Assembly: GCA_963619335.1 (NCBI GenBank)
Contig: CAVEVP010000002.1
Location: 30,003-94,002, forward strand
Direction of reading: 5' to 3'
DNA from: Clostridiales bacterium
GTDB taxonomy: Bacteria; Patescibacteriota; Saccharimonadia; Saccharimonadales; Saccharimonadaceae
Length of the DNA stretch: 64,000 nt
Below, piece by piece: positions 3-55,716 of this stretch (position 1 is the stretch's first letter; each line of letters begins with the position of its first letter). A model generated the notes under the pieces. That model was not told where the DNA came from. It was given only the letters and a program-made list of their open reading frames with translations, and made no database searches. Both the position numbers and the translations under genes were made by a program.

Positions 3-3078
<3,076 letters not shown>

Positions 3079-13988: not shown

Positions 13989-16511
13989 ATGGAGCGATTA
14001 TTAGAGTATTTTACACCGGAAAAATATGTTTTAAATTTGACGGTTGATAAGGGGCGGAAGACGATCGGGGGCGTGGTTGAGGTTTTGGGGGTAGCAAAGG
14101 CGGAAACGGTGAAGTTTCACGCGGTGGGCTTATCCGTTAGCTCGGTGCTGGTGAATGACGAAAAGGCGGATTTTGAAACCCGAGATGGGGTTCTTAGCGT
14201 TTTTAAGGTACCTAGGAGCGAAATTAGGGTCGAAATAGGGTATGAGGGCGGTTTGAATGAAAATATGCAGGGAGCGTATCTGTCGACATATGAATATCAG
14301 GGGCGAACAGAGATGATTGTGGCGACGCAGTTTGAGAGCCATTATGCAAGGGAGGCGTTTCCATGTATTGATGAGCCGGCTGCGAAAGCGGTGTTTGAGC
14401 TCACGATTACTGTGCCGGACAAAGATGATTTGGTGCTAGCCAATATGCCGGCAGTTTCCAAGGAGCCTCAACAAAAGTATCGTTTGGGGTCGCGTCCGGC
14501 CAGCCCGTCGCCACGGGTGGCCGGCGCTAAGCCTCGCGCTGCCGCGCTCCGGAATCCCCCAAACAATACCTTTGTTTCGGCTAAATACACCACCGTCTTC
14601 GAGCCGACGCCGCGGATGTCGACGTATCTGCTCGCGTTCGTGGTGGGGAAGTTTCAGGGGAAAACGGTGAAAAATGCGCATGGGACGGAGATTACGACCT
14701 ATTGTTCGCTGGCGCAGGAACTCGACGCGGTGGATTTTGCGAATGAGGTGGCGGCGAAATCGCTCGAGTTTTATGATGATAATTTTGGGGTGAAGTACCC
14801 CTTAAAAAAGCTTGATCAGATCGCATTGCCGGATTTTGAGGCGGGGGCGATGGAAAACTGGGGGCTGGTGACGTATCGGGAATCGATGATGCTGGCGGGG
14901 AAAAATGCGACGCTGGGGACGAAAAAGTCAGTGGCGCTGACGGTGGCGCACGAATTGTCGCACCAGTGGTTCGGGGATCTTGTGACGATGGCGTGGTGGG
15001 GCGATTTGTGGTTGAATGAGTCGTTTGCGAGCGTGATGGAATATTTCGCGGTCGATCACGCATATCCGGAATTTAAGATTTTTGAGGGCTTTTTCACGGG
15101 CGATTGTTTTTCGGCGCTGTCGCGGGACGCGTATTCGGGCGTGCAGTCGGTTCATCAAGACGTAGCGGATCCGGCGGAAATTGCGACGCTGTTTGACGGG
15201 GCGATTGTGTATTCGAAAGGCGCGCGGTTGATGCTAATGTTAATTCGGATGATGGGCTGGGATGAATTTTGCCGAGGAATTCGGGACTATTTTGAGAAAT
15301 TTAAATATCAAAATACGGTGGGGGACGATTTGTGGGCGTGTTTGACGAAATATGCGGAGTTTGATGTTGGGAAAATGATGCACGCGTTCATCGATCGGCC
15401 GGGGTATCCGGTTTTGACGAGCAAAAACGGGAATTTTGAGGAATTTGAGCAGCAACGATTTTTGCTGGACGGCGAAATGGCGGGATCGGACTGGCCGCTG
15501 CCGAAAATTACGGAGGATATGAGTGGACATTATGTGTTGAATTTGTCGGAGGCGGAGTTTGAAGAGAGGTTGGCGCGGTTTGATGAGCTGAATTTGGAGG
15601 AAAAATTAAGGCTGTTGATCGATCGGTCGCTGGTTTGCCGGACAAAATTGGCGTCTTCAGAGTCGCTGTTACCGTTAATTGCGAAGTTTCGGGACGAAAA
15701 TTCGGCGGCGGTGTGGAATATCGTGGCGGTGATTGTCGGGCAGCTGAAAATTTTCTGCGAGCCGGATTCGGAGGCGGAAAAGCAGTTGAAAAAGTTTGTG
15801 GGGGAATTGGTCGAGCCGAAACTCGCGGAAGTGGGGCTAGTGACGCGGGCAGATGACGATGAAAATACTTTGCGGCTGCGGGCGGTGCTGTCAGGGCTGG
15901 ATTATTATGCGGAAAATGCGGAGAATTTAAAAGTTTTGGCGGATTTATATACGCGAGATTTTGCGAAATTGGACGCGGAGACGCGGGATGCGGTGCTGGA
16001 CGCGAAAATTTATTTTGAGCCGGAGATGGCGAGCGAATTTTTGGATGCTTATCGCGAGACGGCGGATCCGGATGTGAAGTTTGATTTGCTGTTTGCGACG
16101 ACTTTGGCGCGGGACGAGAAAGTTTTGGCGCGGATGGTGGAAGTTTTAAATGATGTTGAGCTGGTGAAACCGCAGGATCAATTACATCTGTTTATTTACC
16201 TGTTTAGAAATACGCGGGCGCGAAAAATGGTCTGGCAGTGGCTAGTGGCGCACTGGGATTTTGTGAAAAAAATGATGGGCGACAAGTCACTGGACGCGTA
16301 TCCGCGATATACGGCGAATTTGATTCGCACCGAGGAAGGATTTAAGGCGTGGCAGGAATTTTTCGAGCCGATGCGAGAAGATCCGGCTTTGAAGCGGGCG
16401 ATTGAAATTGGTGAGAAAGAAATTGCGGCGAGGTTAGAACTGATTAAAAATGACCGCGAGGCGGTAGAAAAAGCGTTAAAAAATGACCAAGCATGGTCAC
16501 TAACGGATTAA
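13989..16511 (+). CDS. pepN: M1 family aminopeptidase with an in-frame palindromic insertion
   Basis: TQFE...AFPCIDEP, GAMENWG, HELSHQW-x-E, VYSKGA. Confidence 0.93.
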   Translation: MERLLEYFTPEKYVLNLTVDKGRKTIGGVVEVLGVAKAETVKFHAVGLSVSSVLVNDEKADFETRDGVLSVFKVPRSEIRVEIGYEGGLNENMQGAYLSTYEYQGRTEMIVATQFESHYAREAFPCIDEPAAKAVFELTITVPDKDDLVLANMPAVSKEPQQKYRLGSRPASPSPRVAGAKPRAAALRNPPNNTFVSAKYTTVFEPTPRMSTYLLAFVVGKFQGKTVKNAHGTEITTYCSLAQELDAVDFANEVAAKSLEFYDDNFGVKYPLKKLDQIALPDFEAGAMENWGLVTYRESMMLAGKNATLGTKKSVALTVAHELSHQWFGDLVTMAWWGDLWLNESFASVMEYFAVDHAYPEFKIFEGFFTGDCFSALSRDAYSGVQSVHQDVADPAEIATLFDGAIVYSKGARLMLMLIRMMGWDEFCRGIRDYFEKFKYQNTVGDDLWACLTKYAEFDVGKMMHAFIDRPGYPVLTSKNGNFEEFEQQRFLLDGEMAGSDWPLPKITEDMSGHYVLNLSEAEFEERLARFDELNLEEKLRLLIDRSLVCRTKLASSESLLPLIAKFRDENSAAVWNIVAVIVGQLKIFCEPDSEAEKQLKKFVGELVEPKLAEVGLVTRADDDENTLRLRAVLSGLDYYAENAENLKVLADLYTRDFAKLDAETRDAVLDAKIYFEPEMASEFLDAYRETADPDVKFDLLFATTLARDEKVLARMVEVLNDVELVKPQDQLHLFIYLFRNTRARKMVWQWLVAHWDFVKKMMGDKSLDAYPRYTANLIRTEEGFKAWQEFFEPMREDPALKRAIEIGEKEIAARLELIKNDREAVEKALKNDQAWSLTD
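14465..14581. repeat. Family B palindromic element, copy B1, inside pepN
   Basis: Core CGCGTCCGGCCAGCCCGTCGCCACGGGTGGCCGGCGCT..CCTCGCGCTGCCGCGCTCCGGA flanked by arms ACAAAAGTATCGTTTGGGG / CCCCAAACAATACCTTTGT. Confidence 0.88.
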
Positions 16512-16561
16512 TTTAACGGTATAACTTCTATTATACCACAGATTGTTCTAAAAGTCAATAG

Positions 16562-16648
16562 TGGTGCCCGAGGCAGGACTTGAACCTGTACGATATTGCT
16601 ACCACTAGCACCTGAAGCTAGCGCGTCTACCAATTCCGCCACTCGGGC
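16562..16648 (-). tRNA. tRNA-Leu(CAG)
   Basis: GCCCGAGTGGCGGAATTGGTAGACGCG-CTAGC-TTCAGGT-GCTAG with long variable arm, CCA end. Confidence 0.93.
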
Positions 16649-16718
16649 CTGTGTTTATTATAACATATTTTTTGAAAAAATGCGGGATATGATATAATTA
16701 AAGCAACTCGGAGGTAAA

Positions 16719-17843
16719 ATGATTACAGTAAATTTTGAACCAGCAATGGATGAAGCGAAAACCGCGGAGATTTTGAAGGAAATTGCGCGGGATAAAATGG
16801 GGGGGTGGTTGGAATTGCCGCGGAAGTTTGATATGGGGGAGTTTGTGCGGATTAAAGAGGCGGCGAAAAAAATTCAGGAAGAAAGCGAATATTTGGTTTG
16901 TATTGGGATTGGGGGGTCGTATTTGGGGCATCGGGCGGCGATCGAGGCTCTGCGGCCGCGGTCGGAGACGAAAATTATTTATGCGGGGAATTCGCTGTCG
17001 AGGCGGGAGCTCGAATATGCGCTGGAAAAAGTCGGCGACCACGATTTTTCGGTAAATGTGATTTCAAAATCGGGCACAACGCTCGAGCCGGCGGTGGCGT
17101 TTAATGCGTTTAAACGGAAATTGATTGAAAAATATGGCGAGGCGGAGGCGGCGAGCCGGATTTATGCGACTACGGACCGCAAAAAAGGTGCCCTACACGA
17201 TGAGGCGGTGGCGGCGGGCTACGCGCGGTTTGTGGTGCCGGATGATGTCGGCGGGCGCTATTCGGTTTTGTCGGCGGTGGGGCTGCTACCGATGGCGGTG
17301 GCGGGAATTAATGTTGATAAGCTATTGGAGGGGGCGGCGACAGCGGTGGAAACGGCGGTTGAGCCGGCGACAAAATACGCTTGGATGCGATATGAACTGG
17401 GACGAAAGGGCTACGATACGGAAGTTTTTGCGAGCGCGGAGCCGGCGACGATGTATTTTAGCGAATGGCTAAAACAGTTGTTTGGCGAAAGTGAGGGTAA
17501 GGGGAAACAGGGTGTTTTTCCGGCGAGCGTGATTTATTCGACGGACCTACATTCGCTGGGGCAGTTCATGCAGGACGGGCGAAGGAATTTGTGGGAGACG
17601 ATTATCGATTATCCGACCGACGAACAAAACGCGAAAGTGGTGACGGCAGTAAGAGCCGCGCACACGGAAGGCGGGATTTTAGTGTTAAATATCGGGGTGC
17701 CGTCGTTTGATGAGATAGGATTTGGGGAGTTGATTTATTTCTTTGAGCTGGCGTGCGCGGTGTCGGCAAAATTATTCGGAGTAAATCCGTTTGATCAGCC
17801 GGGGGTGGAGGCGTATAAAGCGGAACTTAAGCAGTTATTATAG
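16719..17843 (+). CDS. pgi: Glucose-6-phosphate isomerase (compact)
   Basis: GIGGSYLG, SKSGTTLE, VGGRYSV, QLFGESEGK, DLHSLGQ, PFDQPGVEAYK. Confidence 0.95.
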   Translation: MITVNFEPAMDEAKTAEILKEIARDKMGGWLELPRKFDMGEFVRIKEAAKKIQEESEYLVCIGIGGSYLGHRAAIEALRPRSETKIIYAGNSLSRRELEYALEKVGDHDFSVNVISKSGTTLEPAVAFNAFKRKLIEKYGEAEAASRIYATTDRKKGALHDEAVAAGYARFVVPDDVGGRYSVLSAVGLLPMAVAGINVDKLLEGAATAVETAVEPATKYAWMRYELGRKGYDTEVFASAEPATMYFSEWLKQLFGESEGKGKQGVFPASVIYSTDLHSLGQFMQDGRRNLWETIIDYPTDEQNAKVVTAVRAAHTEGGILVLNIGVPSFDEIGFGELIYFFELACAVSAKLFGVNPFDQPGVEAYKAELKQLL

Positions 17844-18771
17844 TGCCGGCGGAGCCGTCTAAAGCTGAACTTAAATGTTCGATATCGGTGATGAGGCTAA
17901 GTTTGCGAGTTTTGTGGGTGGAAAATTTAATCGCGGCTTCGACTTTGGGGAGCATGGAGCCGGGTTTGAAATGGCCGTCTTTAATTAGTTTTTTAAGCTC
18001 CGCGGCGGAAATTTTGGAGAGGGCGGTTTGAGTGGGCGTGTTGAAATTTAAATAAACGTTTGGCACGGCGGTGATAGAGGCGAAAATGTCGGCGCGAGTT
18101 AGTTCGGCGAGTTTTTCAGCGGCGTAATCTTTATCGATCACAGCGTCGATACCTTTCAAGCGTTTTAAAACTTTAGTGCGGACGACTGGAATGCCACCGC
18201 CGCCAGCAGCGATAACGATAACGCCGTTTTGGGCCAGTTCAATAATGGTTTTTTTCTCGACGATATCGACGGGCTTTGGCGAAGCGACAACTCGGCGCCA
18301 ACCGCGACCGGCGTCTTCTTTAACCATCCAATGATTTTTGCGGGCGAGAGCGCGAGCGGTGTTTTTGTCGTAGAATTGGCCGATAGGTTTGGTTGGATTT
18401 TTGAAGGCAGGGTCGGAACGATTAACTACGACTTGAGAAATAATAGTGGCGATTTTTTGAGAACGACCGCGTTTGATGAAAGCATTGTTGATAGCTTGGG
18501 TGAGCCAGTAGCCGATTTGGCCTTGACTCATGGCGACGGCGGTTTCGAGAGGCATGGCGGGCGCGGCGGCGCTTGCGGCGGATTCTTCGTGAATTAAAAT
18601 ATTGCCGATTTGCGGGCCGTTGCCATGGACGATAATAATTTCATATTTTTGCGCTAAGTCGGCAATGGCTTCGCCGACGGTTTCGGCGATTTTTTTCTGG
18701 GCGTCGGCAGTGTTTTCACCATTTTTTTGCAGGGCATTACCACCAAAAGCAAGTACAATTCGTTGTTTCAT
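17827..18771 (-). CDS. arcC: Carbamate kinase (AguC/ArcC)
   Basis: GGNAL, HGNGPQIG, NPTKPIG, EDAGRGWRRVVASP, GGGGIPV, AVIDKD, GSMLPKVEAA. Confidence 0.95.
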   Translation of the reverse strand: MKQRIVLAFGGNALQKNGENTADAQKKIAETVGEAIADLAQKYEIIIVHGNGPQIGNILIHEESAASAAAPAMPLETAVAMSQGQIGYWLTQAINNAFIKRGRSQKIATIISQVVVNRSDPAFKNPTKPIGQFYDKNTARALARKNHWMVKEDAGRGWRRVVASPKPVDIVEKKTIIELAQNGVIVIAAGGGGIPVVRTKVLKRLKGIDAVIDKDYAAEKLAELTRADIFASITAVPNVYLNFNTPTQTALSKISAAELKKLIKDGHFKPGSMLPKVEAAIKFSTHKTRKLSLITDIEHLSSALDGSAGTIITA

Positions 18772-18822
18772 AAGTTAATTATACCACTTGTGCTTTTTTT
18801 AAAAAACTATATAATAATAAGT

Positions 18823-19839
18823 ATGGATGGGTATACTTTAGCGCACCAAAAACCAACACACAAAGATTTTTTGGACACGACCGATTTTGAACAATCCGAA
18901 ATTATGGATATTATTAATACTTCGCGAATTGTGCGAGATTATATTAAGGACGGAGGGTTTTTAAATTCACTGTTTCACAAGACTTTGGCGATGTTGTTTG
19001 AGCAAAAGTCGACACGGACGCGGATTTCGTTTGAGGTGGCGATGGCACAACTGGGCGGGCATGCGTTGAATTTGGCGCCGGGAGCGATCCAGTTGGGTGC
19101 GCACGAAACGATTGAAGACACGGCGCGGGTGTTTGGGCGAATGTGCGACATGGCGATGGCGCGAGTGGATCGGCATGAGTCGATTGAGGCGCTGGCGAAA
19201 TATGCGGAAATCCCGGTGATTAACGGGATGAGCGACCGAGTGCATCCGACGCAGGGGGTGGGCGATATGATTACGGTGCTGGATCATTGGCCAGCAGGGA
19301 AAAAGCCGAATGAGGTGAAGTTCATTTTTGTGGGCGATGCGACACAAGTTTGCAATACTTTGTGCGAAATTACGACCAAACTCGGGTTTAATTTTGTGCA
19401 TTTTGGGCCGGAAAATCACAAAATTGCGGATGAATGGCTGGAAATTGGCAAGAAAAATGCTGAAAAATATGGCGGAAGTTGTATGTGGAGCGACGACGAA
19501 GCGGTGCTCGCGGGGGCGGACTTTATTTATACGGATGTGTGGTATGGGCTTTACGATAAAGAAACGCCGAAAGAAGTTTATATGGCAGATTTTTATCCAA
19601 AGTATCAAGTGAATGCAGAAATGCTTGCGAAAACCGGCAATTCGGCGGTGAAATTTATGCATTGTTTGCCAGCAAACCGCAACGAGGAAGTCACGGATGA
19701 AGTTTTGGACGGGCCGAATTCGGCGGCGTGGGACGAAGCGGAGAATCGGTTGACCGCGCAGAGGGGACTGGTGTTGTATTTTGGTGGTGTCGCACAAGCC
19801 ACCTTAAATTATATTAAGCAACAGAAGGAGGCAAAATAA
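18823..19839 (+). CDS. ptcA: Putrescine carbamoyltransferase (AguB/PtcA)
   Basis: STRTR, HPTQ, HCLP transcarbamylase motifs, with YTDVWYGLYD loop characteristic of putrescine rather than ornithine transcarbamylase (DxxxSMG); adjacent to aguA. Confidence 0.9.
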   Translation: MDGYTLAHQKPTHKDFLDTTDFEQSEIMDIINTSRIVRDYIKDGGFLNSLFHKTLAMLFEQKSTRTRISFEVAMAQLGGHALNLAPGAIQLGAHETIEDTARVFGRMCDMAMARVDRHESIEALAKYAEIPVINGMSDRVHPTQGVGDMITVLDHWPAGKKPNEVKFIFVGDATQVCNTLCEITTKLGFNFVHFGPENHKIADEWLEIGKKNAEKYGGSCMWSDDEAVLAGADFIYTDVWYGLYDKETPKEVYMADFYPKYQVNAEMLAKTGNSAVKFMHCLPANRNEEVTDEVLDGPNSAAWDEAENRLTAQRGLVLYFGGVAQATLNYIKQQKEAK

Positions 19840-21305
19840 TGCCGCAGAAAAAACGTAAATTCAGACTGTTTTCGGCAGTGCTCGCGACAGTCTGTATAAT
19901 CTTGGTGGGGGACGCAGTCGCGCCGACAGCATCGATTGGTAATTCAATGTATGTGTGGTGGCTGATTATGATTATTGGGTTCTTTATTCCCTATGCGTTG
20001 ATTTCGGCGGAGCTCGGGACGCAATATCCGTCGGAAGGAGGGATGTATACCTGGATTAAAAAGGCGTTTAGTAAAAAGTGGGCGTCGCGCGTGGCGTGGT
20101 TTTATTGGGTAAATTATCCCTTGTGGATTGCATCGCTTGCGGATTTGATTACGTCGCTACTCATGCAAATGCTAGGGGTGGAAATGGAAATTTGGATGGT
20201 GCTCGCGATACAGCTATTCTATACGGTATTGGTGACAGTGCTGGGAATGCTCCGAATTTCGCAGTCGGCGTGGGTATCAAATCTCGGCGCGATAATTAAG
20301 TTTTTAATTCTCGGTGGGATTTCGGCGCTAGGAATTTATGTGTTCTGTACGCAAGGGACAATGAATCCGGTGGAATCGTGGCATGATTTTGTGCCACTGC
20401 TTTCGGCGGATGGAGGGATTGATTGGACGGGGTTAGCGTTCGTGTCGTTAATTATCTTTAATATGCTGGGATTTGAAGTGGTGGGGACGTTTGTGGACGA
20501 TATGGACAAGCCCAAAAAACAAATTCCGCAAGCGATTATCCTTGGCGGGGTGCTGATTGCGATATTTTATATTTTGCCGTCGTTTGCGATTGGGGTGGGG
20601 ACGGAATTTTCGGAGATCTCGACGGATACGGGGCTTTTAGATTCGTATGAGATCTTAATGGAACACGCCGGGTTTTCGGTGGCGGCGATTAAATCGATTA
20701 TTGTAGTGGTGGGGTCGCTGTTTATTCTGACGCTAATTTCGAATATTTCGTCGTGGAATTTTGGGGTATATTCGGTGATCGCGTATGCGGCGGAAGACGG
20801 GATGTTCCCGAAATCTTGGACTAAGCGCAATAAAGACGGCGTGCCGTATATGGTCGGGGTGTGGACGGGGGTGGTCGCGGTGGTACTAGCGGTAGCGGGA
20901 ATTATTCTAGCGTATTGTTTCCCCGAATGGGAAGCCGGTTCGAATATGTTTTGGGCGTTCTTTGATTTGTCGCTAGTGTGTTTGCTACTATCATATATTC
21001 CGATGTTTGCGGCGTTTATCAAATTACATAAAGACGGCAAACAAGTGAAAAACGGGTATTGGATTAAGACTGGATCGGTGATGAGGTGGGTGCTAGGGGT
21101 AGTGCCATTAATACTGCTCGGAATTTCGTTGTTATTTACCTTAGTGCCGGAGTTTTCGCTTGAGGCAATCGAGGGGAATATGACTTTGATTGTATCATCG
21201 GTGATTTGTGTGGTGATTGGGGAAGTAATGATTGCAAATATGTCGCGTAAAGATAAGCAAAAAAAGTTAGCTAAAAAGTCAACAAGAAAGGTGGCCAAAA
21301 GATGA
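19839..21305 (+). CDS. aguD: APC-family transporter, probable agmatine/putrescine antiporter
   Basis: About 12 TM segments, AELGTQYPSEGG, GFEV motif; lies between ptcA and aguA. Confidence 0.82.
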   Translation: MPQKKRKFRLFSAVLATVCIILVGDAVAPTASIGNSMYVWWLIMIIGFFIPYALISAELGTQYPSEGGMYTWIKKAFSKKWASRVAWFYWVNYPLWIASLADLITSLLMQMLGVEMEIWMVLAIQLFYTVLVTVLGMLRISQSAWVSNLGAIIKFLILGGISALGIYVFCTQGTMNPVESWHDFVPLLSADGGIDWTGLAFVSLIIFNMLGFEVVGTFVDDMDKPKKQIPQAIILGGVLIAIFYILPSFAIGVGTEFSEISTDTGLLDSYEILMEHAGFSVAAIKSIIVVVGSLFILTLISNISSWNFGVYSVIAYAAEDGMFPKSWTKRNKDGVPYMVGVWTGVVAVVLAVAGIILAYCFPEWEAGSNMFWAFFDLSLVCLLLSYIPMFAAFIKLHKDGKQVKNGYWIKTGSVMRWVLGVVPLILLGISLLFTLVPEFSLEAIEGNMTLIVSSVICVVIGEVMIANMSRKDKQKKLAKKSTRKVAKR

Positions 21306-22396
21306 AACTAAATTCAACGCCAAAAAATGACGGTTTTTACATGCCGTCGGAACTTGCGGAACATAAATGTACGTATGTGTTGTGGCCGGAACGACCGGAC
21401 AACTGGCGCGGCGGAGCGAAGCCAGCGCAAAAGGCTTTTCGCGAAGTGGTAGAAAAAATTGCGAAGTATGAGCCGGTGGTGCTGGGGGTGAATTCGTCGC
21501 AATATGCGCACGTACTGGGTATGAATATGAAAAATGTGGCCGTGGTGGAGATTTCGAATAATGATTCGTGGATTCGGGACACGGGCGCGACGATGGTGAT
21601 TAATGGTCAGGGCGAAATGCGTGCCGTGGATTGGGAATTTAATGGTTATGGCGGGTTGTTTAACGGAATTTATTTTCCGTGGGATTTGGACGACGCGATT
21701 GCTGCCAAAATGGCGGCGATTGAAAAAGTGGACCGGTATCGGACGGACGGTTTTGTACTGGAAGGAGGGTCGGTACATAGTGATGGCGAGGGGACTTTGC
21801 TCGTAACCGAAGAAACTTTGTTGGATGAAGGACGCAATCCGGGCATGAGTAAAGCGGAAATTGAGGCAAAGTTGCTTGAATATTGTGGCGCGGAAAAAGT
21901 ACTGTGGATCCCGTACGGGATTTACAAAGATGAAGATACGAACGGGCATGTGGATAATATTTGCCAATTCGTGGCGCCGGGGAAAGTAGTGCTGGCATGG
22001 GAAGATAATATTTCTGATCCGCAACACGAACGGTCGGTGCGAGCGTTAGAATATTTGGAGAGCGAAACTGATGCACGTGGGCGAAAGCTCGAAATTGTCA
22101 AAATTCACGTGCCGAGTCCGGTGACGATTACTAAAGAAGAATCGGAAGGCGTGGATGTGGTCGAGGGGACGTTCCCGCGCAATGAGGGCGATCGGTTGCC
22201 GGCGTCGTACATTAATTATTATAACTGTAATGGGGCGATTATTTTGCCGGTCTTTAATGACCCGCGAGACGAGGAAGCGATTCGGACTCTGCAGGCGTGC
22301 TTTCCAGACAGGGTGATTGAGCCGGTATATGCGCGTGAGATTTTACTCGGTGGCGGAAATATTCATTGCATTACGCAACAGGTGCCAAAGGCATGA
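21302..22396 (+). CDS. aguA: Agmatine deiminase
   Basis: WPERPDNW, DSWIRD, LEGGS, TNGHVD, GGGNIHCITQQ. Confidence 0.95.
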   Translation: MKLNSTPKNDGFYMPSELAEHKCTYVLWPERPDNWRGGAKPAQKAFREVVEKIAKYEPVVLGVNSSQYAHVLGMNMKNVAVVEISNNDSWIRDTGATMVINGQGEMRAVDWEFNGYGGLFNGIYFPWDLDDAIAAKMAAIEKVDRYRTDGFVLEGGSVHSDGEGTLLVTEETLLDEGRNPGMSKAEIEAKLLEYCGAEKVLWIPYGIYKDEDTNGHVDNICQFVAPGKVVLAWEDNISDPQHERSVRALEYLESETDARGRKLEIVKIHVPSPVTITKEESEGVDVVEGTFPRNEGDRLPASYINYYNCNGAIILPVFNDPRDEEAIRTLQACFPDRVIEPVYAREILLGGGNIHCITQQVPKA

Positions 22397-24033: not shown

Positions 24034-24054
24034 GAACGTTTAGGGACTGCGGGT

Positions 24055-24885
24055 TTATTTTCCGCAGACGACATTGTTGGCGTGGAGCCAGCCTTCGACC
24101 GAACCGCCGTCTAGGTATTGGCCGGAAGTCGGGGCGACACGCATGACGCCACCGTTTTGAATGAACTCGTCGATTGGGTCGGTGACAAGATATTCTTGAT
24201 CGAGCGGACCGAAATCGTGTGTATTGACGTATTTGACGATAGTTTGCAAAAGTTCCGGCGACATGATGTATTTCGAAACGTTAATGAGGTTGCTCGGTGC
24301 TTCTTCGGGGGTGGGTTTTTCGACTACGCTGACGAGCTTGCCGTTTTTGGCCGACAGGACGCCGTATTTTCCGATATCATTTTTGTCAATTTCGACACCG
24401 AGGATAGCAGAGTCGGTCGGACTTTCGAGAGAGTTAATTAAAGACATGGCGGCAGATTCGCCGTCTGGATTCCAAATAAAATCGTCGCCCATAAAAACTA
24501 ACACCGGCTCGTTTAAATTATATTCTTCGACGACCATGGCGATTGGCACGGCAGTGCCGTATTTACCGGCGGGGTCTTGGACTGTGTAGTGAATCGTGAC
24601 GTCGTCCGGCAAAGTTTTCGCGAGTTTTAGCCGGTCGGACTTACCGCGCGCGGTGAGATATTGATTGAGGGCTAAGTTGTCTTTATAGAATTCTTGCACT
24701 TGGCAAGGCTCGACGTTCGAGATAACCATATAGATATCTTTGACGCCCGCCTTGATAAGTTCTTGGACCGAATAATCCACCAGCGGACGGTTCCCGACCG
24801 GGAGCATGGATTTTTCGATAATTTTGGTAATCGGTAGCCGGCGAGTACCCCAGCCCGCCACCGGAATAATAGCTTTCGTAATCAT
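24055..24885 (-). CDS. Sugar-phosphate nucleotidyltransferase (GalU-like)
   Basis: KAIIPVAGWGTRRLP, KSMLP, GDD, VEKP; start may be 24894. Confidence 0.85.
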   Translation of the reverse strand: MITKAIIPVAGWGTRRLPITKIIEKSMLPVGNRPLVDYSVQELIKAGVKDIYMVISNVEPCQVQEFYKDNLALNQYLTARGKSDRLKLAKTLPDDVTIHYTVQDPAGKYGTAVPIAMVVEEYNLNEPVLVFMGDDFIWNPDGESAAMSLINSLESPTDSAILGVEIDKNDIGKYGVLSAKNGKLVSVVEKPTPEEAPSNLINVSKYIMSPELLQTIVKYVNTHDFGPLDQEYLVTDPIDEFIQNGGVMRVAPTSGQYLDGGSVEGWLHANNVVCGK

Positions 24886-24940
24886 AATACCCATATTATA
24901 ACATAGTGTGGTATAATCAAGGTATAAAAACGAGGTAGCT

Positions 24941-26632
24941 ATGCTAAAAATCAAGAATCAACAACGTGATCCGATAGTGCCACCTTTGAGTATTTCGGCA
25001 CTGTTTAATTTGTCAAGTTTTCGGCATTGGAGCGATACGGTTGTGAATCAGAAAGAGTTAAACTTTACCCGGCGAGAGCTAAAACGCGATCGAAAAATAT
25101 TAGCCAAGGCGTTTCTCGTACTGGGAGTTAAAAAAGGCGATATTATCACAGTTTATACAGCGCGTTCAATGTATGATAATATCGTGATTTTTTTAGCGGC
25201 GAATAAAATTGGGGCGATTGTGTCGTTTCTGGACGAAAAAACGCCACGCGATACGGTGCTCCGGCATATTGAAGAGTTCAAATCTTCGCTAGTTATTGTG
25301 CAAAATAAAACTGCAGGGCGGATCAAAGATTTGAAAAAAGATGCAAAAACGGTCAAAAATGTGATTAATTTGACTTCGGATTATGATGAAAAGGAGTTTG
25401 AGACGACAATTTTGGAAACTTTTATGCTGGGAAAAAAGTCGCTCGTGGAAATTGCGGAGACTTATCGCGGATGGGTGCCGAAAAATATTTTGGGCGGGCG
25501 GAATGAAGCGATTATCACATTTACTTCGGGTTCAACTTCGGGGCCGAAGCCAATGGTGTTTACGAATAAAAATTTGATTGCGGCGGCATTGTTTTCGAAA
25601 GCGGCGTCGGGAATTAAAATGTGGGACAAGGATATTAAAACTTGGCTGTCGTTTGTGAAATTCGATTGTCCGTACGGATTTTGGACCTCGGTGATGACGC
25701 CGATTATTGGCGGGAGTTCGGTGATTTTGACGCCGGACATTAACGAAAAAAATTTGGATTATTATTTTAGTAAGCCGATTAGCGTAGTGCAGGCGGTGCC
25801 GCTTTTGCTCGATATGTTGTCGAAAAATCTATCGCCGGAGGTGGATTTGTCGGCGACAAAAATGTATATTTCGGGTGGGGAGCGGTTAGAAAAAAATGCT
25901 TCGGCGGCGGCGGTGGAGTTTTTCAAGACACACGGCGCGACGGTGAAAATGTGTAATGGTTATGGCGTGGGGGAATGTCTCGGAAGTATTACGGTCGCGG
26001 TCGGCTCGACATATCATCCAGACACGGTCGGGAAAATTGTACCCGGGGCGCATGTGATGATTCTTGATCCGGAGACGGGCGAAGAATTAAATTTTGGACG
26101 GTCGGGGATTTTGTACGTGCATGGGAAGCATATTTTAAGTCGGTATTATAACCGGCCGGAGCTGACGGAAGAAAAAATTATCAAAGTAAATGGGCGGCGG
26201 TTTGTAAATACGGGCGATCTCGCGACAGTGTCGGAGACGGGATTTATTACTTTGATTGGGCGGGCAACGTTCTTTATTAATAATTTGCCGGCGAAAGTAT
26301 ATTATGAAGTAGTGAGGCTGGCGGTGGCGAAGTCGGATTTAGTCGAGCGGTGCTATGTGGTTAAGGGGCCGGATGCGAAATTGAAACTCGCGTCGTATGC
26401 GTTTGTGGTAACGAAAGAGGGCGTGGGGCATAATAATCAAGTGCGCCGGCAGATTGTAACCGACGCGACAAGGCCGTTTTACATCGGCAAGCGACGAATG
26501 ATTTTGAAGCCGTATGAGTTGCCGCGGAAAGTAGTGTTTTTAGACGCGTTGCCACTAACTAAGGCGAATAAAATTGATTTTCGAAAGTTGGAAAAAATGG
26601 CGAGAGAGATGGGTACGGAGGCGGGAAAATAA
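24941..26632 (+). CDS. Class I adenylate-forming enzyme (acyl-CoA synthetase-like)
   Basis: FTSGSTSGPK, GYGVGE, TGDL, LPLTKANKID core motifs. Confidence 0.85.
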   Translation: MLKIKNQQRDPIVPPLSISALFNLSSFRHWSDTVVNQKELNFTRRELKRDRKILAKAFLVLGVKKGDIITVYTARSMYDNIVIFLAANKIGAIVSFLDEKTPRDTVLRHIEEFKSSLVIVQNKTAGRIKDLKKDAKTVKNVINLTSDYDEKEFETTILETFMLGKKSLVEIAETYRGWVPKNILGGRNEAIITFTSGSTSGPKPMVFTNKNLIAAALFSKAASGIKMWDKDIKTWLSFVKFDCPYGFWTSVMTPIIGGSSVILTPDINEKNLDYYFSKPISVVQAVPLLLDMLSKNLSPEVDLSATKMYISGGERLEKNASAAAVEFFKTHGATVKMCNGYGVGECLGSITVAVGSTYHPDTVGKIVPGAHVMILDPETGEELNFGRSGILYVHGKHILSRYYNRPELTEEKIIKVNGRRFVNTGDLATVSETGFITLIGRATFFINNLPAKVYYEVVRLAVAKSDLVERCYVVKGPDAKLKLASYAFVVTKEGVGHNNQVRRQIVTDATRPFYIGKRRMILKPYELPRKVVFLDALPLTKANKIDFRKLEKMAREMGTEAGK

Positions 26633-26691
26633 GCCGACGCGAAGAGCTGGCGTAAAACTTGAGCGGAGCTTAAAAACTAGCAAAATAACAA

Positions 26692-26718
26692 TTAGCACTC
26701 TTGACGATTGAGTGCTAA
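26692..26718. promoter_or_regulatory. CIRCE operator (HrcA binding site) overlapping the clpC promoter
   Basis: Exact TTAGCACTC-N9-GAGTGCTAA; -35 TTGACG at 26701 and -10 TATACT at 26724. Confidence 0.95.
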
Positions 26719-26735
26719 TTTGATATACTGGGGTT

Positions 26736-29204
26736 ATGCAAGCAGAATTTAGTGAAATTATGAATAATTTGTCCGAAAATGCGCGATTTGCGTTGCAGAG
26801 GGCGGATGTTTATAGTAAAAAATACAACAATGGCTATATGGGGACGGAGCATTTGCTACTGGGGATTTTGGCGATGGATGTTTCGATGGGGGCGAGTATT
26901 TTGCGAACGGCGGGGGTAACGGTGGATGATGTGGAAAAGGCTTTGAATAAAGTGGCGGTGGAAGTGCCGGGGAGCGACATGGCAATGATGTCGCTGTCGG
27001 AGGCAGTGATTTTGACGTTGAGGATGGCGCAAAGTTTCGTGAAAGAGAGTGGGCTAAGCGTAATTGGGACAGAACATATTTTGTATGCTTTACTTTCGCA
27101 GCCGAATTCGCGGGCGTCGTTGATTTTAACGGGGCTGAAAGTGGACGCGGAAAAGATTTTAGATGAAATTGAGGATTTGGTGGACGAGGAGACTAAGGAC
27201 GAGCAGAACAAGGCGGAAAAAGCGAAGTATATTAAGTCGTCCGGGGTGCGGTTTTTGAAAAAATATGGCAAGGATTTGACGGAGGAAGCGCGCGCGGGGC
27301 GACTGGATACGGTGATTGGGCGCGAAAGTGAAATTGAGCGAGTAGTAACGGTATTGTCGCGGCGGACAAAGTCTAATCCGGTTTTGATTGGCGAGGCGGG
27401 GGTCGGGAAAACGGCGATTGTGGAGGGGTTGGCCACGCGAATTGTAAAAAATGAAGTGCCGGGGAACTTGGTCGGAAAACATATTTATCAAGTGGATTTG
27501 TCGTCGGTGGTGGCGGGGACGAAGTTTCGGGGCGAGTTTGAGGAACGAATTAAGGGGATTATTGACGAAGCAATGAATGATGAGACGATTTTGCTATTTA
27601 TTGATGAAATTCATTTGTTATGCGGGGCGGGGTCGAGCGAGGGCTCGATGGATGCGGCGAATATTTTGAAACCAGCGCTGGCGCGAAATTCGATTAACTT
27701 AATTGGCGCGACGACGCTGGACGAATATCGCAAAACGATTGAAAAAGATAAGGCCCTGTCGCGACGGTTCCAGACGGTAATGGTGGAAGAGCCGAGCGCG
27801 GTGGTGACGCTGAAAATTTTGAAGGGGATTAAGAATCATTATGAAAAACATCACGGCGTAAGCATTCCGGACGAAGTTTTAGAGACGGCGATTATGATGT
27901 CGCAACGATATATTAACGATCGGTTTATGCCGGACAAGGTGATTGATATTATTGACGAGGCAAGTGCGATTTGTAAGGTGGCGGCGGACAAAAAAGGTGG
28001 GGGCAAGTATAAGAAAATGAAAATCGAAAAGGCGCAGCTGGAAGAAAAAATAATGGTGGCGGCAGAAAAAGAGGATTTTGAGAAAGCGGCGGAATTTAAA
28101 ACGAGACTGGCGCAACTGGAAAAAAGAATTAAAGAATTGGAAAAGTCGGGCGCGAAAGAAGAAGAGATGCCGGTGCTTACGGAAGAGAATTTGGCGACGG
28201 CGGTGTCTTTAAAAACGGGAATTCCAGTGTCAAAAGTGCATGGCAGTGAAATGAAAATGTTGATGGGGCTGGAAGATGAGCTAAATAAAGCTGTGGTGGG
28301 GCAAGAAGAAGCAGTAAAGGCAGTGGCGAAAGCGATTCGGCGGGGGCGAAGCGGAATTGCGGACTCTAGGCGGCCGATTGGTTCGTTCCTATTTATGGGC
28401 CCGACGGGCGTAGGTAAGACGGAGCTCGCGCGAGTGATTGCGCGGGAAGTGTTTGGGGGTGAGAATGCATTGATTAAAATTGATATGTCGGAATTTGGCG
28501 AAAAGCACAATGTGTCGCGGCTGGTCGGGGCGCCGGCGGGGTATATTGGGTATGATGATGGCGGGAAATTGACCGAGGCGGTGCGACGCAAACCGTATTC
28601 GGTGATTTTGTTTGATGAAATTGAAAAGGCGCATCCAGACGTGTTTAATTTGCTACTGCAGATTTTGGAAGACGGCGTGCTGACGGATGGACAAGGGAAT
28701 AAAATTAAATTTAATAATACGATTGTGATTTTGACGTCGAACCTTGGCTCGGCGGACATGTATCGCGAGAGCGAACTCGGATTTAAGGCAAAAACGAAAC
28801 AGGATAAGAAAGTGTTGGAACAGGAATATGAAGAGAATAAAGAATACGCGATGAAAGCGCTGAAAAAAGTGATGCGACCGGAGCTGATCAATCGGTTGGA
28901 TGATATCGAAGTGTTCCATGCGCTGACCAGGAAAGATGTGGAGAAGATCTTTGATAACCTAATAAATGAGTTAAAGAAACGGTTGGCGACGAAAGGAATT
29001 GGGCTGAAAGTGGAGGAAGAAGCGAAAAATTATTTGATTGAAAAGGGCTATGATCCAAAAAATGGGGCGCGGCCGCTGAGGCGCTGCATTGAAGATGAAG
29101 TGGAGTCGCTGTTATCGGAAAAGATTATTGCGGAAGAGCTAGTAAAAGGTGATATTCCGGTGCTGAAATTGAAGAAAGGTGAATTGGTGCTAGAAAAAGC
29201 GTAG
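26736..29204 (+). CDS. clpC: ATP-dependent Clp protease ATPase subunit
   Basis: Two Clp-N repeats, two AAA+ modules ([16 protein letters not shown]), short UVR-like middle domain, LGF loop. Confidence 0.92.
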
Positions 29205-29297
29205 AAAAGTTTTAAGAAAAGTATAATCGGAGGCAAAACAAGCATAAAATGCGATTTAACAGGGGGAGAAAAAATCATAATCCAGAAAGGAGAAAGC

Positions 29298-29888
29298 ATG
29301 AAAAATTATAAAAATTATTTGGTCCCGACGGTGGTCGAAGAGACAAATAAGGGTGAACGGGCGTATGATATTTATTCTCGGCTGTTAAACGACCGGATTG
29401 TGTTTCTTGGCGAGGAGGTGAATTCGCATACGGCGAATCTCGTCGTGGCACAACTTTTGTATCTCGCGCACGAGGACCCGAAAAAGTCGATTAAGCTATA
29501 TATTAATTCGCCTGGCGGGAGCGTGTATGACGGGCTGGCGATTATTGATACAATGAATTATATTGAGCCGGATGTGGAGACGATTGGAATTGGGCTGCAG
29601 GCGTCGATGGGGGCGATGCTGCTGTCGTCGGGCGCTAAGGGTAAGCGGTATTGTTTGCCGAATGCGCGGGTAATGATTCATCAGCCGTCGTCGGGAACGG
29701 AGGGGAAAATTACCGATCAGGAAATTATGTTAAGGGAAGGCGTGTTTTTGAAAAAACGGCTGGCGGAGATTTTTGCAAAAAATACAGGGAAAGATTTGGC
29801 GCAGGTAGAGAAAGATATGGATCGGGACAATTGGATGAGCGCGGAAGAGGCGCTGAAATACGGAATTATTGACGAGATCATTAAATAA
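29298..29888 (+). CDS. clpP: Clp protease proteolytic subunit
   Basis: [25 protein letters not shown]. Confidence 0.97.
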
Positions 29889-30319
29889 TGAAATATGAAT
29901 TTTGGACGGACGGAAGTGCGCATCCGAACCCTGGGCCTGGCGGTTTTGCGGTGATTGAAGTGCGAGGATGGGTGGCCAAGCCGGTGATACTGGGGTCCGA
30001 GAAAAAATCTTCGAATATTCGAATGGAGGGGTGGGCGATTTTGATGGCAATGCGCCGAACTGGCGCGGAAAAGTGTGAAATTCATACAGATTCGCAGTTT
30101 TGGATCAACGTGATTACAAAATGGATGAATGGGTGGGCGAGAATGGGCTGGAGAAAAGCGAGGGGCGAGATTAAAAATTTGGATATTGTGCAAAAAATAT
30201 ACAAAGTTTATGACCCGAAAAGAATGAAATTGATTTGGGTGCGGGGGCACGAGGGGACGGAATATAACGAAATGGCGGACGAATGGGCAAAACGGGCGCG
30301 AAAAGGCGCGAAATTATGA
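29888..30319 (+). CDS. rnhA: Ribonuclease HI
   Basis: TDGS..NPGPGG, NIRME, TDS, WVRGH..NEMAD. Confidence 0.93.
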   Translation: MKYEFWTDGSAHPNPGPGGFAVIEVRGWVAKPVILGSEKKSSNIRMEGWAILMAMRRTGAEKCEIHTDSQFWINVITKWMNGWARMGWRKARGEIKNLDIVQKIYKVYDPKRMKLIWVRGHEGTEYNEMADEWAKRARKGAKL

Positions 30320-30331
30320 TATAATTAAGGC

Positions 30332-31567
30332 ATGAAATTATCAGAAGAGTTGATCTATCGGGGATTTAAGGCCGAGACGACAATCGGGGACGTGGCGGAG
30401 TTGGATACGCGGGCGTCGAAAAAGTTTTATTGGGGCGCGGACCCGTCGGCGGATTCGCTGACGATTGGGAATTTGGCGGCGCTGATGATGTGCGCGTGCT
30501 TTGTACGGCATGGGTATGAGCCGTATCTTTTGGTCGGGGGCGCGACGGGACAAATCGGCGACCCGAAAGAAAACGGCGAGCGGGATTTGAAAACTTTGGA
30601 CGAAGTGGAACACAACAAAAAGTGCATTCGGGAGCAGATTGAGCGAGTGGTGGCGGCGAAGAATGTGAAAATGGTGGATAATTTGGATTGGTTCTCGAAA
30701 ATTAACTATTTGGAGTTTTTGCGGGAAGTCGGAAAAGCGTTTTCAATGACGCAACTGCTCGACCGGCAATTTGTGCAGAACCGGATTGGTGATGGCGGGT
30801 CGGGGATTAGTTATGCGGAGTTTTCATACACTTTGATTCAAGGTTATGATTTTTTGCATTTGTTCCGCGAATACGGGATTTCTTTGCAACTATGCGGGGC
30901 GGACCAATATGGAAACTGTACGTCGGGCATTCATTTAATTCGACGGCTCGAGGGGGCGGACGCGGATGTATGGTCGACACCGCTAGTGATTGATCCGGTG
31001 ACTGGGCGGAAGTTTGGTAAAAGTGAGGGCAATGCGATTTGGCTCGCGAGTTCGGACAACGGGTCGGGGAATTATACTTCGATTTTTGACTTTTATCAAT
31101 TTTGGCTAAACCAGCCGGATGAGGCGGTGGAATATTTAATTAAGATTTATACTTTGCTGGAAAAAGAGGAGATTGAAGAAATTCTTACAAAGCATCAGGC
31201 GGAGCCGGAATTGAGGCTGGCGCAGAAAGCGTTGGCGCGCGGGGCGACGGAAGTGGTGCACGGGGTCGAAAATGCGCAGGCAGTGGAGAATTTGACAGAA
31301 GTATTGTTTGGGCGAGAGACGAATTTCGGGGAATTTTCGGGTGATGAGATTGTGGAGTTTGCGAAGTTTTTGCCGACGGTGAAAAAAGGGACGGGGCTGG
31401 TCGAGGCCTTGGTTTCGACGGGACTTGCGGAGTCGAAAAAGAAGGCGCGGGAGTTCGTGGCTCAGGGCGCGGTGTCGGTGAATGGGGTGAAAATAAAAGA
31501 CGACGTAGAGCTTGTACAAACGGCGTTGGTGAAAAAAGGTAAAAATAAGTTTTTGGTGGTTTGCTAA
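30332..31567 (+). CDS. tyrS: Tyrosine--tRNA ligase
   Basis: GADPSADSLTIGN, EFSYTLIQGYD, GADQYGN, KFGKS, C-terminal S4 domain. Confidence 0.95.
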   Translation: MKLSEELIYRGFKAETTIGDVAELDTRASKKFYWGADPSADSLTIGNLAALMMCACFVRHGYEPYLLVGGATGQIGDPKENGERDLKTLDEVEHNKKCIREQIERVVAAKNVKMVDNLDWFSKINYLEFLREVGKAFSMTQLLDRQFVQNRIGDGGSGISYAEFSYTLIQGYDFLHLFREYGISLQLCGADQYGNCTSGIHLIRRLEGADADVWSTPLVIDPVTGRKFGKSEGNAIWLASSDNGSGNYTSIFDFYQFWLNQPDEAVEYLIKIYTLLEKEEIEEILTKHQAEPELRLAQKALARGATEVVHGVENAQAVENLTEVLFGRETNFGEFSGDEIVEFAKFLPTVKKGTGLVEALVSTGLAESKKKAREFVAQGAVSVNGVKIKDDVELVQTALVKKGKNKFLVVC

Positions 31568-31583
31568 AGATTTATGGGGTTGC

Positions 31584-31611
31584 AAAAAACTGCTCGGGGG
31601 AGCAGTTTTTT
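31584..31611. terminator. Bidirectional intrinsic terminator
   Basis: AAAAAACTGCTC-GGGG-GAGCAGTTTTTT after tyrS. Confidence 0.75.
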
Positions 31612-31655
31612 AAAATAATGCGTGGTTGATGGGCGCGTGTTTTTGTAAGAGCATG

Positions 31656-31681
31656 AAAAAACTGCCCGAGCGGGCAGTTTT
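31656..31681 (-). terminator. Intrinsic terminator after rpmA
   Basis: AAAAAACTGCCCG-AG-CGGGCAGTTTT. Confidence 0.7.
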
Positions 31682-31690
31682 GAATAGCGT

Positions 31691-31963
31691 TTAACGAACT
31701 TCGACGCGAACGCGAGGCGAGCTTTTGCCGGAGAAGTGGGTCTTCTTTACTTTGGTAAAGACAACGACACCGTCTTTCGCGGCGTGAATGGTGAAGTTGT
31801 GCGACATATAAGTGCCTGGGCCGGAGAGTTTCGTGGCGCCAGTTTGGCGAACTAGAACTTCACCGTTTTTGACTTTTTGGCCACCAAAGCGTTTGACGCC
31901 GAGACGTTGGCCAGCATTGTTGTGGATATTTTTGGCGGTACCGCCAGCTTTAACATGTGACAT
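31691..31963 (-). CDS. rpmA: 50S ribosomal protein L27
   Basis: MSHVKAGG...RLGVKRFGGQ...VRQTG. Confidence 0.95.
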   Translation of the reverse strand: MSHVKAGGTAKNIHNNAGQRLGVKRFGGQKVKNGEVLVRQTGATKLSGPGTYMSHNFTIHAAKDGVVVFTKVKKTHFSGKSSPRVRVEVR

Positions 31964-33250
31964 TTACTTTTTCCTTAAAATTATTATATCTCTCGCGACA
32001 ATTTGGCCCTCTCGATAATAAAGAAGCCCCGCGCGCGTTTTATTATTAACATTATACCCCATATTTTCGATATCGTCAAGAATTTTCAGGCGAGAATAAG
32101 TCTGATCGGGGCGAAGCCAAGCGGGGGCGGCTAATACGACGGGGGTGCTCGGCGCAATTTGGCTAGACAAGTTCTTTAAAAAGCCTAAGATGATGACTTG
32201 GCATTCTTGTTTGACGGTTTTTAGGGCAATGTCGGCAGGGATGTTTGAAAAAGGTCGGCCGAGGTAGCCTTCGCAGGCCACGGCGTCGACATGGGGCCAT
32301 TTATGGCTTGTCGCGTCACCGACAGAAATCTGAAAAATACTTTCCTGAGGACCGTAAGCTTGGGCGAGCGCCCTTGAGCGTGTCCGAAGGGAAGTATTTT
32401 CGGGTTTTTCTGGTTTGATAGTCGAAGTAATTCGAGAATTGTCTTCTCTCGGGGCGCGTCCGGCCGGCCCGTCGCCACGGGCGGCCGGCGCTGTTCCTCG
32501 CCTTGCCAGGCTCCGGATCCCCTCGAGATGAACAATTCTCGAATCAGCCAACCATTTCAAATTTCTCTCAGAATATTTGACCATGCGTTCGTCGATATCG
32601 GTGCCATAGACTTGGAAACCCATAAGCAGGGCTTCTTGCAAAAGGACACCGGTGCCGCAAAACGGGTCGAGCAGGGTGGCGGGTTTTGTGATAGGGCCAC
32701 AAAGATTGACTAAAATTTGGGCGAGTTTGGGCGGGAGCATGCCGACCTTAGCGTCGCGCGCGGGGCGAGCTTGGTCGCGGCGAGCGTAAGCGTCGATATC
32801 TTGGACGCCAATGACGCGAAAATAGTCGCGATTGGTTTTAATTAGTTCGATTTTACGGGCGTTTTTGCCGGAAAGTCCGTTGTGGAGAGAAGTGGCGGTC
32901 GATAATACGGCGGTTTTGTTTTCGACGATACGCACAGAACGACCGTGGCGGACGAGAATTTTTTTCAGTTTCAAGCCCTCGGCGGTGGCAGATTTTGCGG
33001 AAGCGGTGCTCGAATAGTCGGAGAGACCGAAAGTGATTTTGCCTTCGGGCAAAGTTTGGAAAAAATTGAGCGGTTTTTGCGGAAGCTCGACAGCGAGTTT
33101 AAGACTGCCGCCGAGAAAATCGATATTTGGCGTAGTGTCGGTAGTAAAAGTGGCGAGTTCGGAGGAGATTTGGCGAACCTCGGAAAATAAGCTCTCGAGT
33201 TCGGCGAGAGAAAGTTCGGATTGGCGACCCAGGACGGCTAGATATTTCAT
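31964..33250 (-). CDS. SAM-dependent RNA methyltransferase (Trm11/UPF0020-like) with two in-frame palindromic insertions
   Basis: GMLPPKLAQILVN, LLDPFCGTG, GTDID; about 75 aa of extra sequence encoded by elements A2 and B2. Confidence 0.82.
   Translation of the reverse strand: MKYLAVLGRQSELSLAELESLFSEVRQISSELATFTTDTTPNIDFLGGSLKLAVELPQKPLNFFQTLPEGKITFGLSDYSSTASAKSATAEGLKLKKILVRHGRSVRIVENKTAVLSTATSLHNGLSGKNARKIELIKTNRDYFRVIGVQDIDAYARRDQARPARDAKVGMLPPKLAQILVNLCGPITKPATLLDPFCGTGVLLQEALLMGFQVYGTDIDERMVKYSERNLKWLADSRIVHLEGIRSLARRGTAPAARGDGPAGRAPREDNSRITSTIKPEKPENTSLRTRSRALAQAYGPQESIFQISVGDATSHKWPHVDAVACEGYLGRPFSNIPADIALKTVKQECQVIILGFLKNLSSQIAPSTPVVLAAPAWLRPDQTYSRLKILDDIENMGYNVNNKTRAGLLYYREGQIVARDIIILRKK
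32323..32412. repeat. Family A palindromic element, copy A2 (reverse orientation)
   Basis: GAGGACCGTAAGCTTGGGCGAGCGCCCTTGAGCGTGTCCGA flanked by arms CAGAAATCTGAAAAATACTTTCCT / AGGGAAGTATTTTCGGGTTTTTCTG. Confidence 0.9.
32431..32543. repeat. Family B palindromic element, copy B2
   Basis: CGCGTCCGGCCGGCCCGTCGCCACGGGCGGCCGGCGCT..CCTCGCCTTGCCAGGCTCCGGA flanked by arms TTCGAGAATTGT / ACAATTCTCGAA. Confidence 0.88.
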
Positions 33251-48427: not shown

Positions 48428-48512
48428 GGCAATCAAAATATCTTTTTTCGGACACACTCAAGGCCGTTCGGCCAAGCCTACGGTCCTCAAAAAGGTATTT
48501 TGATTACTTTAG
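48424..48512. repeat. Family A palindromic element, copy A3 (intergenic), with partial 3' duplication at 48525-48543
   Basis: TCGGACACACTCAAGGCCGTTCGGCCAAGCCTACGGTCCTC flanked by AATCAAAATATCTTTT / AAAAGGTATTTTGATT. Confidence 0.88.
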
Positions 48513-55695: not shown

Positions 55696-55716
55696 CTATA
55701 ATATCATGAGCTCGGC

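Follow-up and report, generated by a model that had tools for sequence, protein, structure and literature searches.

A dispersed protein-coding palindrome with an inside-out architecture in gut Saccharibacteria

Two hairpins in a 64,000-nucleotide stretch of a Saccharimonadaceae contig (GenBank CAVEVP010000002.1, positions 30,003 to 94,002; hereafter the window), one in the gene for the M1 aminopeptidase PepN and the other in that for a class I SAM (S-adenosylmethionine) methyltransferase, define an element that we call family B. It belongs to a dispersed repeat family of gut Saccharibacteria, found mostly in frame in protein loops. The element is a real and new protein-coding palindrome, like the Rickettsia palindromic elements (RPEs) but with an inside-out architecture, in that the tip is shared between copies and the long stem is private to each locus. 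No published description of this hairpin family was found, subscription journals lying outside the literature covered. At a probability of about 60%, we favor the reading that family B is a selfish, non-autonomous DNA element, with one strand, folded as single-stranded DNA at the replication fork, as its predicted active form. Through such elements, essential proteins can change by several residues at once in a bacterial genome that is among the smallest, and the spread of Rickettsia-type coding palindromes and of CGTC-tagged repetitive extragenic palindromes (REPs) without a known transposase is an open question. Since empty, filled, flipped, nested and core-swapped alleles occur at the same codons, together with a replichore bias, in hundreds of related genomes, the mechanism is testable.

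Structure, insertion sites and distribution of the element

The copy B1 in pepN (13989..16511, plus strand; profile match and translation) spans 14464..14582 as a whole hairpin, with the minus strand folding better. Folding, comparison with relatives, core alignments and an arm test delineate, on the plus strand, an upstream arm (14464..14489) with TC at 14468-14469 and a GGGG neck, a core that forms a three-way junction (14491..14553) and a downstream arm (14556..14582) that is an inverted copy of the upstream one. On the minus strand, the long hairpin of the core has a GGCG loop, and the small hairpin (GCGC-TGCC-GCGC at 14536-14547) has a GGCA loop and a GGA/GA internal loop; a CGTC at 14493-14496 adjoins the stem in B1-type cores and is replaced in sister cores. 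The copy B2, recognized by folding and locus comparison, occupies 32430..32544 on the minus strand, in frame in the methyltransferase (31964..33250, minus strand; PF01170, with a weak match to TIGR01177). Its core, delimited by repeat detection, lies at 32455..32517 (plus strand), with the small stem GCCT/AGGC in the hairpin GCCT-TGCC-AGGC at 32500-32511. The two form a two-copy repeat with 77% identity over 91 nt, and no third B copy was found within the window. The folding z-scores on the plus and minus strands are -5.9 and -7.1 for B1 and -5.1 and -6.8 for B2, with 0 of 200 shuffles folding as well in either case. A preliminary description of this DNA had placed the cores at 14491 and 32455, predicted an insert peptide in each protein and proposed that the small hairpin covaries around a minus-strand GGCA loop; all of this is present in the two sequences and translations. 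The linker before CCTC, however, is 3 nt (AAG and GTT) and not the four that it gave, and the TC/TC mismatch that it saw in the arm of B1 exists (14468-9 against 14577-8) but is not conserved, as the orthologous copy in the relative G107 is paired there.

Comparison of orthologs revealed that the element is an insertion. The PepN segment between SN[MT] and the F before xTP measures 51 amino acids in the window, as against 12 in 19 and 12-20 in 40 of 79 distinct alleles; the corresponding methyltransferase segment measures 77 amino acids, as against 13-27 in 7 of the 24 parsed alleles. These alleles were parsed by motif, and the loci that could not be parsed (30/117 for pepN, 14/38 for the methyltransferase and 1/23 for truB, a third shared site) were left out of the counts. 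Thus, in place of the equivalent native segments that the preliminary description had allowed for, there are short empty alleles at both sites, and element sites are also empty in close relatives. The insert is probably translated with the host protein, judging from the reading frames: B-type copies lie inside open reading frames (ORFs) in 42 of 52 cases, and the lengths of orthologs differ by a multiple of three in 69 of 72 coding comparisons, as opposed to 6 of 24 non-coding ones. The insert-bearing PepN translation retains the catalytic motifs GAMEN and HExxH. As for placement in loops, the inserts are loops of low pLDDT (predicted local distance difference test) in AlphaFold models of both proteins that are otherwise confident. 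That of B1 comprises residues 162-195, between two beta strands, and a solved M1 peptidase structure has no insert at the corresponding loop; in the methyltransferase, residues 241-302, between a helix and the strand FQISV, hold both B2 and an adjoining family A element (about 32324..32410, plus strand; folding and locus comparison), one arm of which encodes the host beta strand FQISV before GDAT. A separate observation concerns the same PepN loop, which in one group of relatives (L133, L135, L137, L141, L142, L149, L210, L212 and L216) carries an unrelated extension of 36-37 amino acids that is conserved, non-palindromic and weakly folding; the site therefore tolerates inserts generally.

A search of the genome collection with an exact 36-nt core pattern recovered 117 loci, thereby establishing the dispersed nature of the family. 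Among the 80 titles listed of these, 63 name Saccharibacteria, 10 Nanosyncoccus and 7 only "bacterium", and many name ruminant gut samples. A relaxed hairpin motif was detected in 83 of 120 genomes of the closest relative's genus, with none for a reversed control, and was not found in the other 37; among 200 other genomes of the order it occurred in two, in one copy each. Copy numbers per genome were taken from three close and nearly whole relatives, G003, G107 and G032 (733, 670 and 664 kb), which hold 22, 16 and 12 B-type copies and 9, 9 and 11 of family A, respectively, along with further hairpin families. No core match was found in viral contigs, phages or plasmids.

The pepN, methyltransferase and truB sites variously hold family A, family B and at least four sister cores, and a purine-rich GA..GG/CC..GA neck is common to most of these cores. 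The earlier proposal that such in-frame elements form a general class, alike in architecture but with different cores, is thus upheld. At these sites B is seen in either orientation, alongside family A, sister cores, nested copies and half-deleted remnants. Further unrelated hairpin cores were observed at these methyltransferase and truB sites (L241, L425, L434, L429, L430 and L421).

Locus-private arms, exchanged cores and inversion in place

The element is built of a shared core of about 63 nt, present at dozens of loci, and arms of about 25 bp that are private to each locus. Arms at different loci of one genome differ at 11.5 of 20 positions, which compares with 11.8 of 20 for different sites in different genomes; strictly orthologous arms differ at 7.9 of 18 positions versus 11.0 for unrelated sites. 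Accordingly, the outer arms, previously described as unrelated, are so between loci but are homologous between species at one locus. The arms of nine copies at the pepN site can be aligned with one another, and 26 of the 47 pairs show compensatory change. A fixed bulge position was considered and rejected, as the extra base wanders between arm positions 9 and 20.

Several comparisons suggest that one arm is host sequence. The upstream arm of B1 is homologous to a host-like arm in relatives that starts at the conserved Pro after SN[MT]. In five pepN alleles, removal of the core and the downstream arm leaves exactly the modal 12-residue segment, and keeping the upstream arm gives the better score against empty alleles in 12 of 15 cases. 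Several methyltransferase alleles have the FQ[IV]S strand encoded in the downstream arm. For the truB copy of G003, it is the 3' arm that agrees with the core-free alleles of G107 and G032; its other arm is an inverted copy of this 3' arm with one base gained and one lost. Together, these alignments point to arms that are locus-private and would consist in part of host sequence and an inverted copy thereof. No direct target duplication was seen at insertions in the loci compared.

Elements are also found turned around in place. The methyltransferase of G003 carries both B and A in the orientation opposite to that seen in the window, G107 and G032, and the bulge has turned along with the core. 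One pepN copy is flipped as well, and when read on its folding strand it can be aligned with the other copies. Both orientations occur at 15 of 25 sites shared between genomes, and nested, half-deleted and duplicated copies are common.

The variable positions of the core follow a different pattern: copies at different sites differ at 6.8 of 34 positions within a genome versus 10.6 between genomes (0 of 1000 permutations). Alignments therefore suggest that cores track the genome and arms the locus. A stronger claim, namely that copies in one genome resemble each other in the core more than orthologous copies do, was entertained too and was dropped after a stricter definition of orthology. The strongest single case for conversion of the core appears to be that of G003:C12:9997 and G107:C14:11405, in which the 5' arms agree at all 21 bases listed but the long stems are of different variants, both of which occur at other G003 loci.

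The folding strand and the means of spread

The two strands of the element are not equivalent. One of them folds better in 103 of 113 contexts when treated as RNA and in 108 of 113 when treated as DNA. On this strand the arm mismatches are G-T rather than A-C (88 versus 23 in 107 copies, which are not independent), the extra bases of the 5' arm are purines in 84 of 93 cases and the internal loops read GA/GA. The core stems covary. Moreover, the better-folding strand is the C-rich strand in 63 of the 83 copies with clear skew in the three relatives and the window, in 55 of 74 copies at other loci and, after de-duplication of 119 copies to 47 sites, in 36 versus 6 with 5 ties. This bias holds for copies co-directional with the gene (34/49 at the other loci and 28/36 in the relatives and window), head-on to it (12/16 and 16/21) and in non-coding DNA (9/9 and 19/26). 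In the window itself, GC skew is steady at +0.19 to +0.43, also within minus-strand genes, and B1 and B2 have the same orientation despite the opposite directions of their genes. The G-rich strand of a replichore is its leading strand; on that basis, the stable hairpin would form on the leading-strand template. A strand bias that holds regardless of gene direction points to DNA at the replication fork.

The preliminary description had regarded the small loop as a GNRA tetraloop, with an implied role in RNA. The GGCA loop is found in 143 of 173 contexts as one inherited sequence, and no exchange to another GNRA sequence was observed in the 173. Loops in 28 of them are non-GNRA and belong to sister cores, and those in the remaining 2 are point mutants of GGCA that break the GNRA consensus. 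An invariant GGCA in B proper, together with non-GNRA loops in the sister cores, provides no evidence of an RNA tertiary motif; and as the orientation follows the replichore and not the gene, the RNA implication is not sustained.

If family B is a DNA element of the fork, its history could be pictured in the following steps, all of them conjectural. A founding insertion would carry an inverted copy of the adjacent host DNA; template switching would then bring about concerted evolution of the arms and inversion in place; the core could be replaced from other copies; and selection on the protein would keep the frame and the position in a loop. The strand bias might arise during copying, or else because hairpins are lost faster from the lagging-strand template, as attC hairpins are according to the parts covered of one attC study (PMC5371416). 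Template switching is described as homogenizing arms and inverting spacers in the available portions of two accounts, one of them on coding palindromes of Nematomorpha (PMC8604942, PMC6649704). Carried further, these steps would amount to inside-out mobile DNA, that is, a transposase-free hairpin tip that copies itself into the nascent strand at forks, builds its stem by inverted duplication of the target and is then exchanged between resident hairpins like a cartridge. We regard this as a tentative possibility; if true, transposition would be driven by host replication alone and would continually rewrite the loops of essential proteins.

Several observations weigh against the reading of family B as a selfish, fork-dependent DNA element, or against parts of it. 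The pepN arm test does not discriminate for the allele of the window itself (10.0 versus 10.8), and that for the methyltransferase is weak (6/10). The core-free truB alleles could be deletion products, as related arms are found in G005 and G112. At some insertions (G107:C4:22171 and G032:C5:18171) most of the arm sequence has no counterpart in the empty allele, and two sites of one genome carry nearly identical arms; hence, arms can also travel with the core. Strictly orthologous cores differ at 6.5 of 34 positions and are thus as alike as same-genome copies (6.8), so that lineage-specific bursts fit as well as conversion. In 104 of 144 contexts the search pattern itself dictated hairpin 1, the copies are not independent of one another and the relatives are all incomplete metagenome-assembled genomes. 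Finally, no insertion event was observed in the genomes compared, and no mobilizing enzyme was identified among the families searched.

An enzyme that recognizes the folded strand, either an HUH nuclease or a tyrosine recombinase acting as the integron integrase does on attC, could alternatively insert or exchange cores at the neck, with the arms being homogenized later. The foreign arms at some sites are in keeping with this, as is the CGTC next to the B stem, which recalls the CGTC REPs, and two tyrosine recombinases are encoded in each of the five element-rich genomes. Nevertheless, the RYYYAAC/GTTRRRY boxes are present in just 2 of 144 contexts, and neither of the two G003 recombinases reaches the integron-integrase cut-off of 265 (scores 121.6 and 107.7). 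A Y1 transposase was found in 7 of the 120 genus genomes and not in G003, these genomes being incomplete; the six Y1 genomes over the cut-off have 0-4 motif copies each. IS110, resolvase, Rep_trans and DDE_Tnp_1 were each found in none of the five element-rich genomes, and rve in two. We therefore consider enzymatic mobilization rather unlikely.

Of the host functions searched for, RecA is present in all five element-rich genomes and MutS in none, and SbcD is over the cut-off in 1 of 120 genus genomes; the scarcity of SbcD and MutS, if it is not due to the incompleteness of these genomes, would let long palindromes and mismatched arms persist, a point in favor of the selfish-DNA reading.

A functional structured RNA, such as an antisense RNA, an mRNA structure or a ribozyme, with a GNRA-capped three-way junction would explain the extensive covariation, the G-U-compatible pairs and the tandem GA loops on one strand. 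We hold it to be improbable, because the folding strand may be the sense or the antisense strand depending on the gene and can switch at a given site, its orientation tracks GC skew rather than the gene, and GGCA never changes to another GNRA loop while sister cores do without one. Furthermore, nothing in Rfam comes near the gathering score, which answers the earlier question of a known non-coding RNA family, the sites are empty in close relatives, and around B1 there are hardly more promoter- and terminator-like sites than in shuffles (2 versus 1.1 and 3 versus 1.8, respectively).

Still less probable is a SINE (short interspersed nuclear element)-like parasite of the resident reverse transcriptase (RT) of a diversity-generating retroelement (DGR). 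Each of the five element-rich genomes has two RVT_1 matches, and a cDNA of lagging-strand sequence could conceivably anneal at the fork. However, the RTs inspected, which we take to be DGR-type from the usual features of such systems, have a job of their own, as they adjoin an Asn-rich template-repeat-like stretch or Fib_succ-like target genes. Moreover, although an RT relative is found in 81 of 120 genus genomes, its presence does not follow copy number (Fisher p 0.21-0.70), and nine RT-negative genomes have at least five copies.

The re-use of sites across species (119 copies at 47 sites) and their replichore-linked orientation might also be read as signs of chromosomal sites that benefit the host in replication restart, recombination or nucleoid organization; this has little to recommend it given that the motif was not found in the 37 genus genomes mentioned above and that nested, half-deleted and duplicated copies are common. 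Lastly, an intron or a translational-bypass element taken out of the message, as the long closing stem that joins the two flanks might suggest, can be practically dismissed, since the frame is kept (69/72), both orientations are open, one arm encodes conserved host residues and the inserts are placed in loops of the models.

Comparison with known systems and other features of the region

The closest parallel is with RPEs, which the portions of the descriptions covered portray as dispersed palindromic repeats of 100-150 nt that lie in frame in conserved housekeeping genes and also between genes of a reduced bacterium dependent on its host, and that no enzyme is known to mobilize (PMC10969869, PMC2229807). 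Compared by description, the present element is likewise a dispersed palindrome of about 100-150 nt, in frame and intergenic, with empty orthologs and an insert predicted to lie outside the folded core of the protein. It differs in that RPEs, as far as these accounts go, have terminal inverted repeats of their own (12 bp in a table of PMC2229807), whereas here copies have only the tip in common, the long stem being private to the locus, derived in part from the host and maintained by compensatory change. In-place inversion, core swapping and replichore bias are features of the present element that do not figure in the parts of the RPE descriptions covered.

CGTC-tagged REPs include RPE-4, RPE-6 and Neisseria dRS3 in the sections of the survey covered (PMC3733652), and share with family B a CGTC by a stem-loop with a 4-nt loop, intragenic copies and the lack of a dedicated transposase. 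In those same sections, the REP stem has 8-9 bp, opens with A-T pairs and is followed by a CCA tail, whereas the stem here is about 12 bp, bulged and GC-led. Moreover, it is part of a three-way junction set in long private arms with no CCA tail, and sister cores do not retain the CGTC.

Integron attC sites, as characterized in the passages covered (PMC5027507, PMC5371416), resemble family B in conserving structure over sequence, in having one strand that folds better through G-T pairs and purine-rich unpaired parts, in their extrahelical bases and in a preference for the leading-strand template. Unlike them, family B has no R boxes, cassette arrays or integron integrase and lies inside genes. 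Template-switch palindromes and those of Nematomorpha share with it concerted arms, spacer inversion and arms that encode host residues (PMC8604942, PMC6649704); in what is covered of these sources they lack a shared dispersed core, and the arms here are not perfect but keep G-T pairs and a one-base bulge. Miniature inverted-repeat transposable elements, such as Correia, ERIC and RUP, are similarly short, non-autonomous, hairpin-forming and sometimes fused to ORFs, going by the part of PMC2229807 covered, but family B is GC-rich, with no shared terminal inverted repeats and no direct target duplication seen.

Family A is represented elsewhere in the window, in each case on the minus strand, by an element in frame in ligA (1471..1553; folding and locus comparison), the site of which is empty in G032, by one upstream of serS (48425..48511; repeat detection and locus comparison), and, between the Mur ligase and dus genes, by two elements along with a half copy that is duplicated (55616..55840; repeat detection). 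A third hairpin family, with nested arms, lies between convergent genes at 44660-44838; it is kept in G032 and absent from the site in G107 and G003, and its core is found at other loci too.

Other systems of potential mobility or diversification were encountered in passing. In G107:C19 (L406:379-2804) a DGR-like cassette comprises a gene for 280 amino acids with no NCBIfam match, an RT, relatives of which are those found in 81 of the 120 genus genomes, and, on the other strand, a template-repeat-like stretch rich in Asn. In G003:C18 (L322:6383-10100) the second tyrosine recombinase, of 278 amino acids, is followed by four small, oppositely oriented genes, presumably NYN-, PemK-, Fic- and DUF-like by their motifs, with repeated intergenic motifs; the layout is integron-like, with the recombinase below the IntI cut-off. 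In the window, a gene with a Listeria-Bacteroides repeat and a weak C-terminal Fib_succ_major match (9560-11437) precedes repeated short hairpins at 11476-11620, and the region as a whole (9560-11620) resembles a DGR target with downstream stem-loops; G032 has an RT just past the end of the block syntenic with it.

Inverted and direct duplications of gene ends were also observed. Downstream of several tRNA genes in G003, G107 and G032 (clusters 5, 19 and 23), the gene's own 3' end recurs as an imperfect inverted copy around a short hairpin. At three loci (G107:C5:8522-8761, G032:C13:14795-15038 and G003:C18:10630-10798), an inverted repeat of a gene's 3' end lies 100-170 nt downstream, and the two enclose terminator hairpins. 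A 30-nt tRNA 3' end in the window is duplicated exactly, 80 nt downstream (42604-42713). Finally, an amino-acid-kinase-family gene, a carbamoyltransferase, an amino-acid permease and a Porphyromonas-type deiminase adjoin one another at 17827-22396, a gene group that probably encodes an agmatine or arginine deiminase energy pathway.

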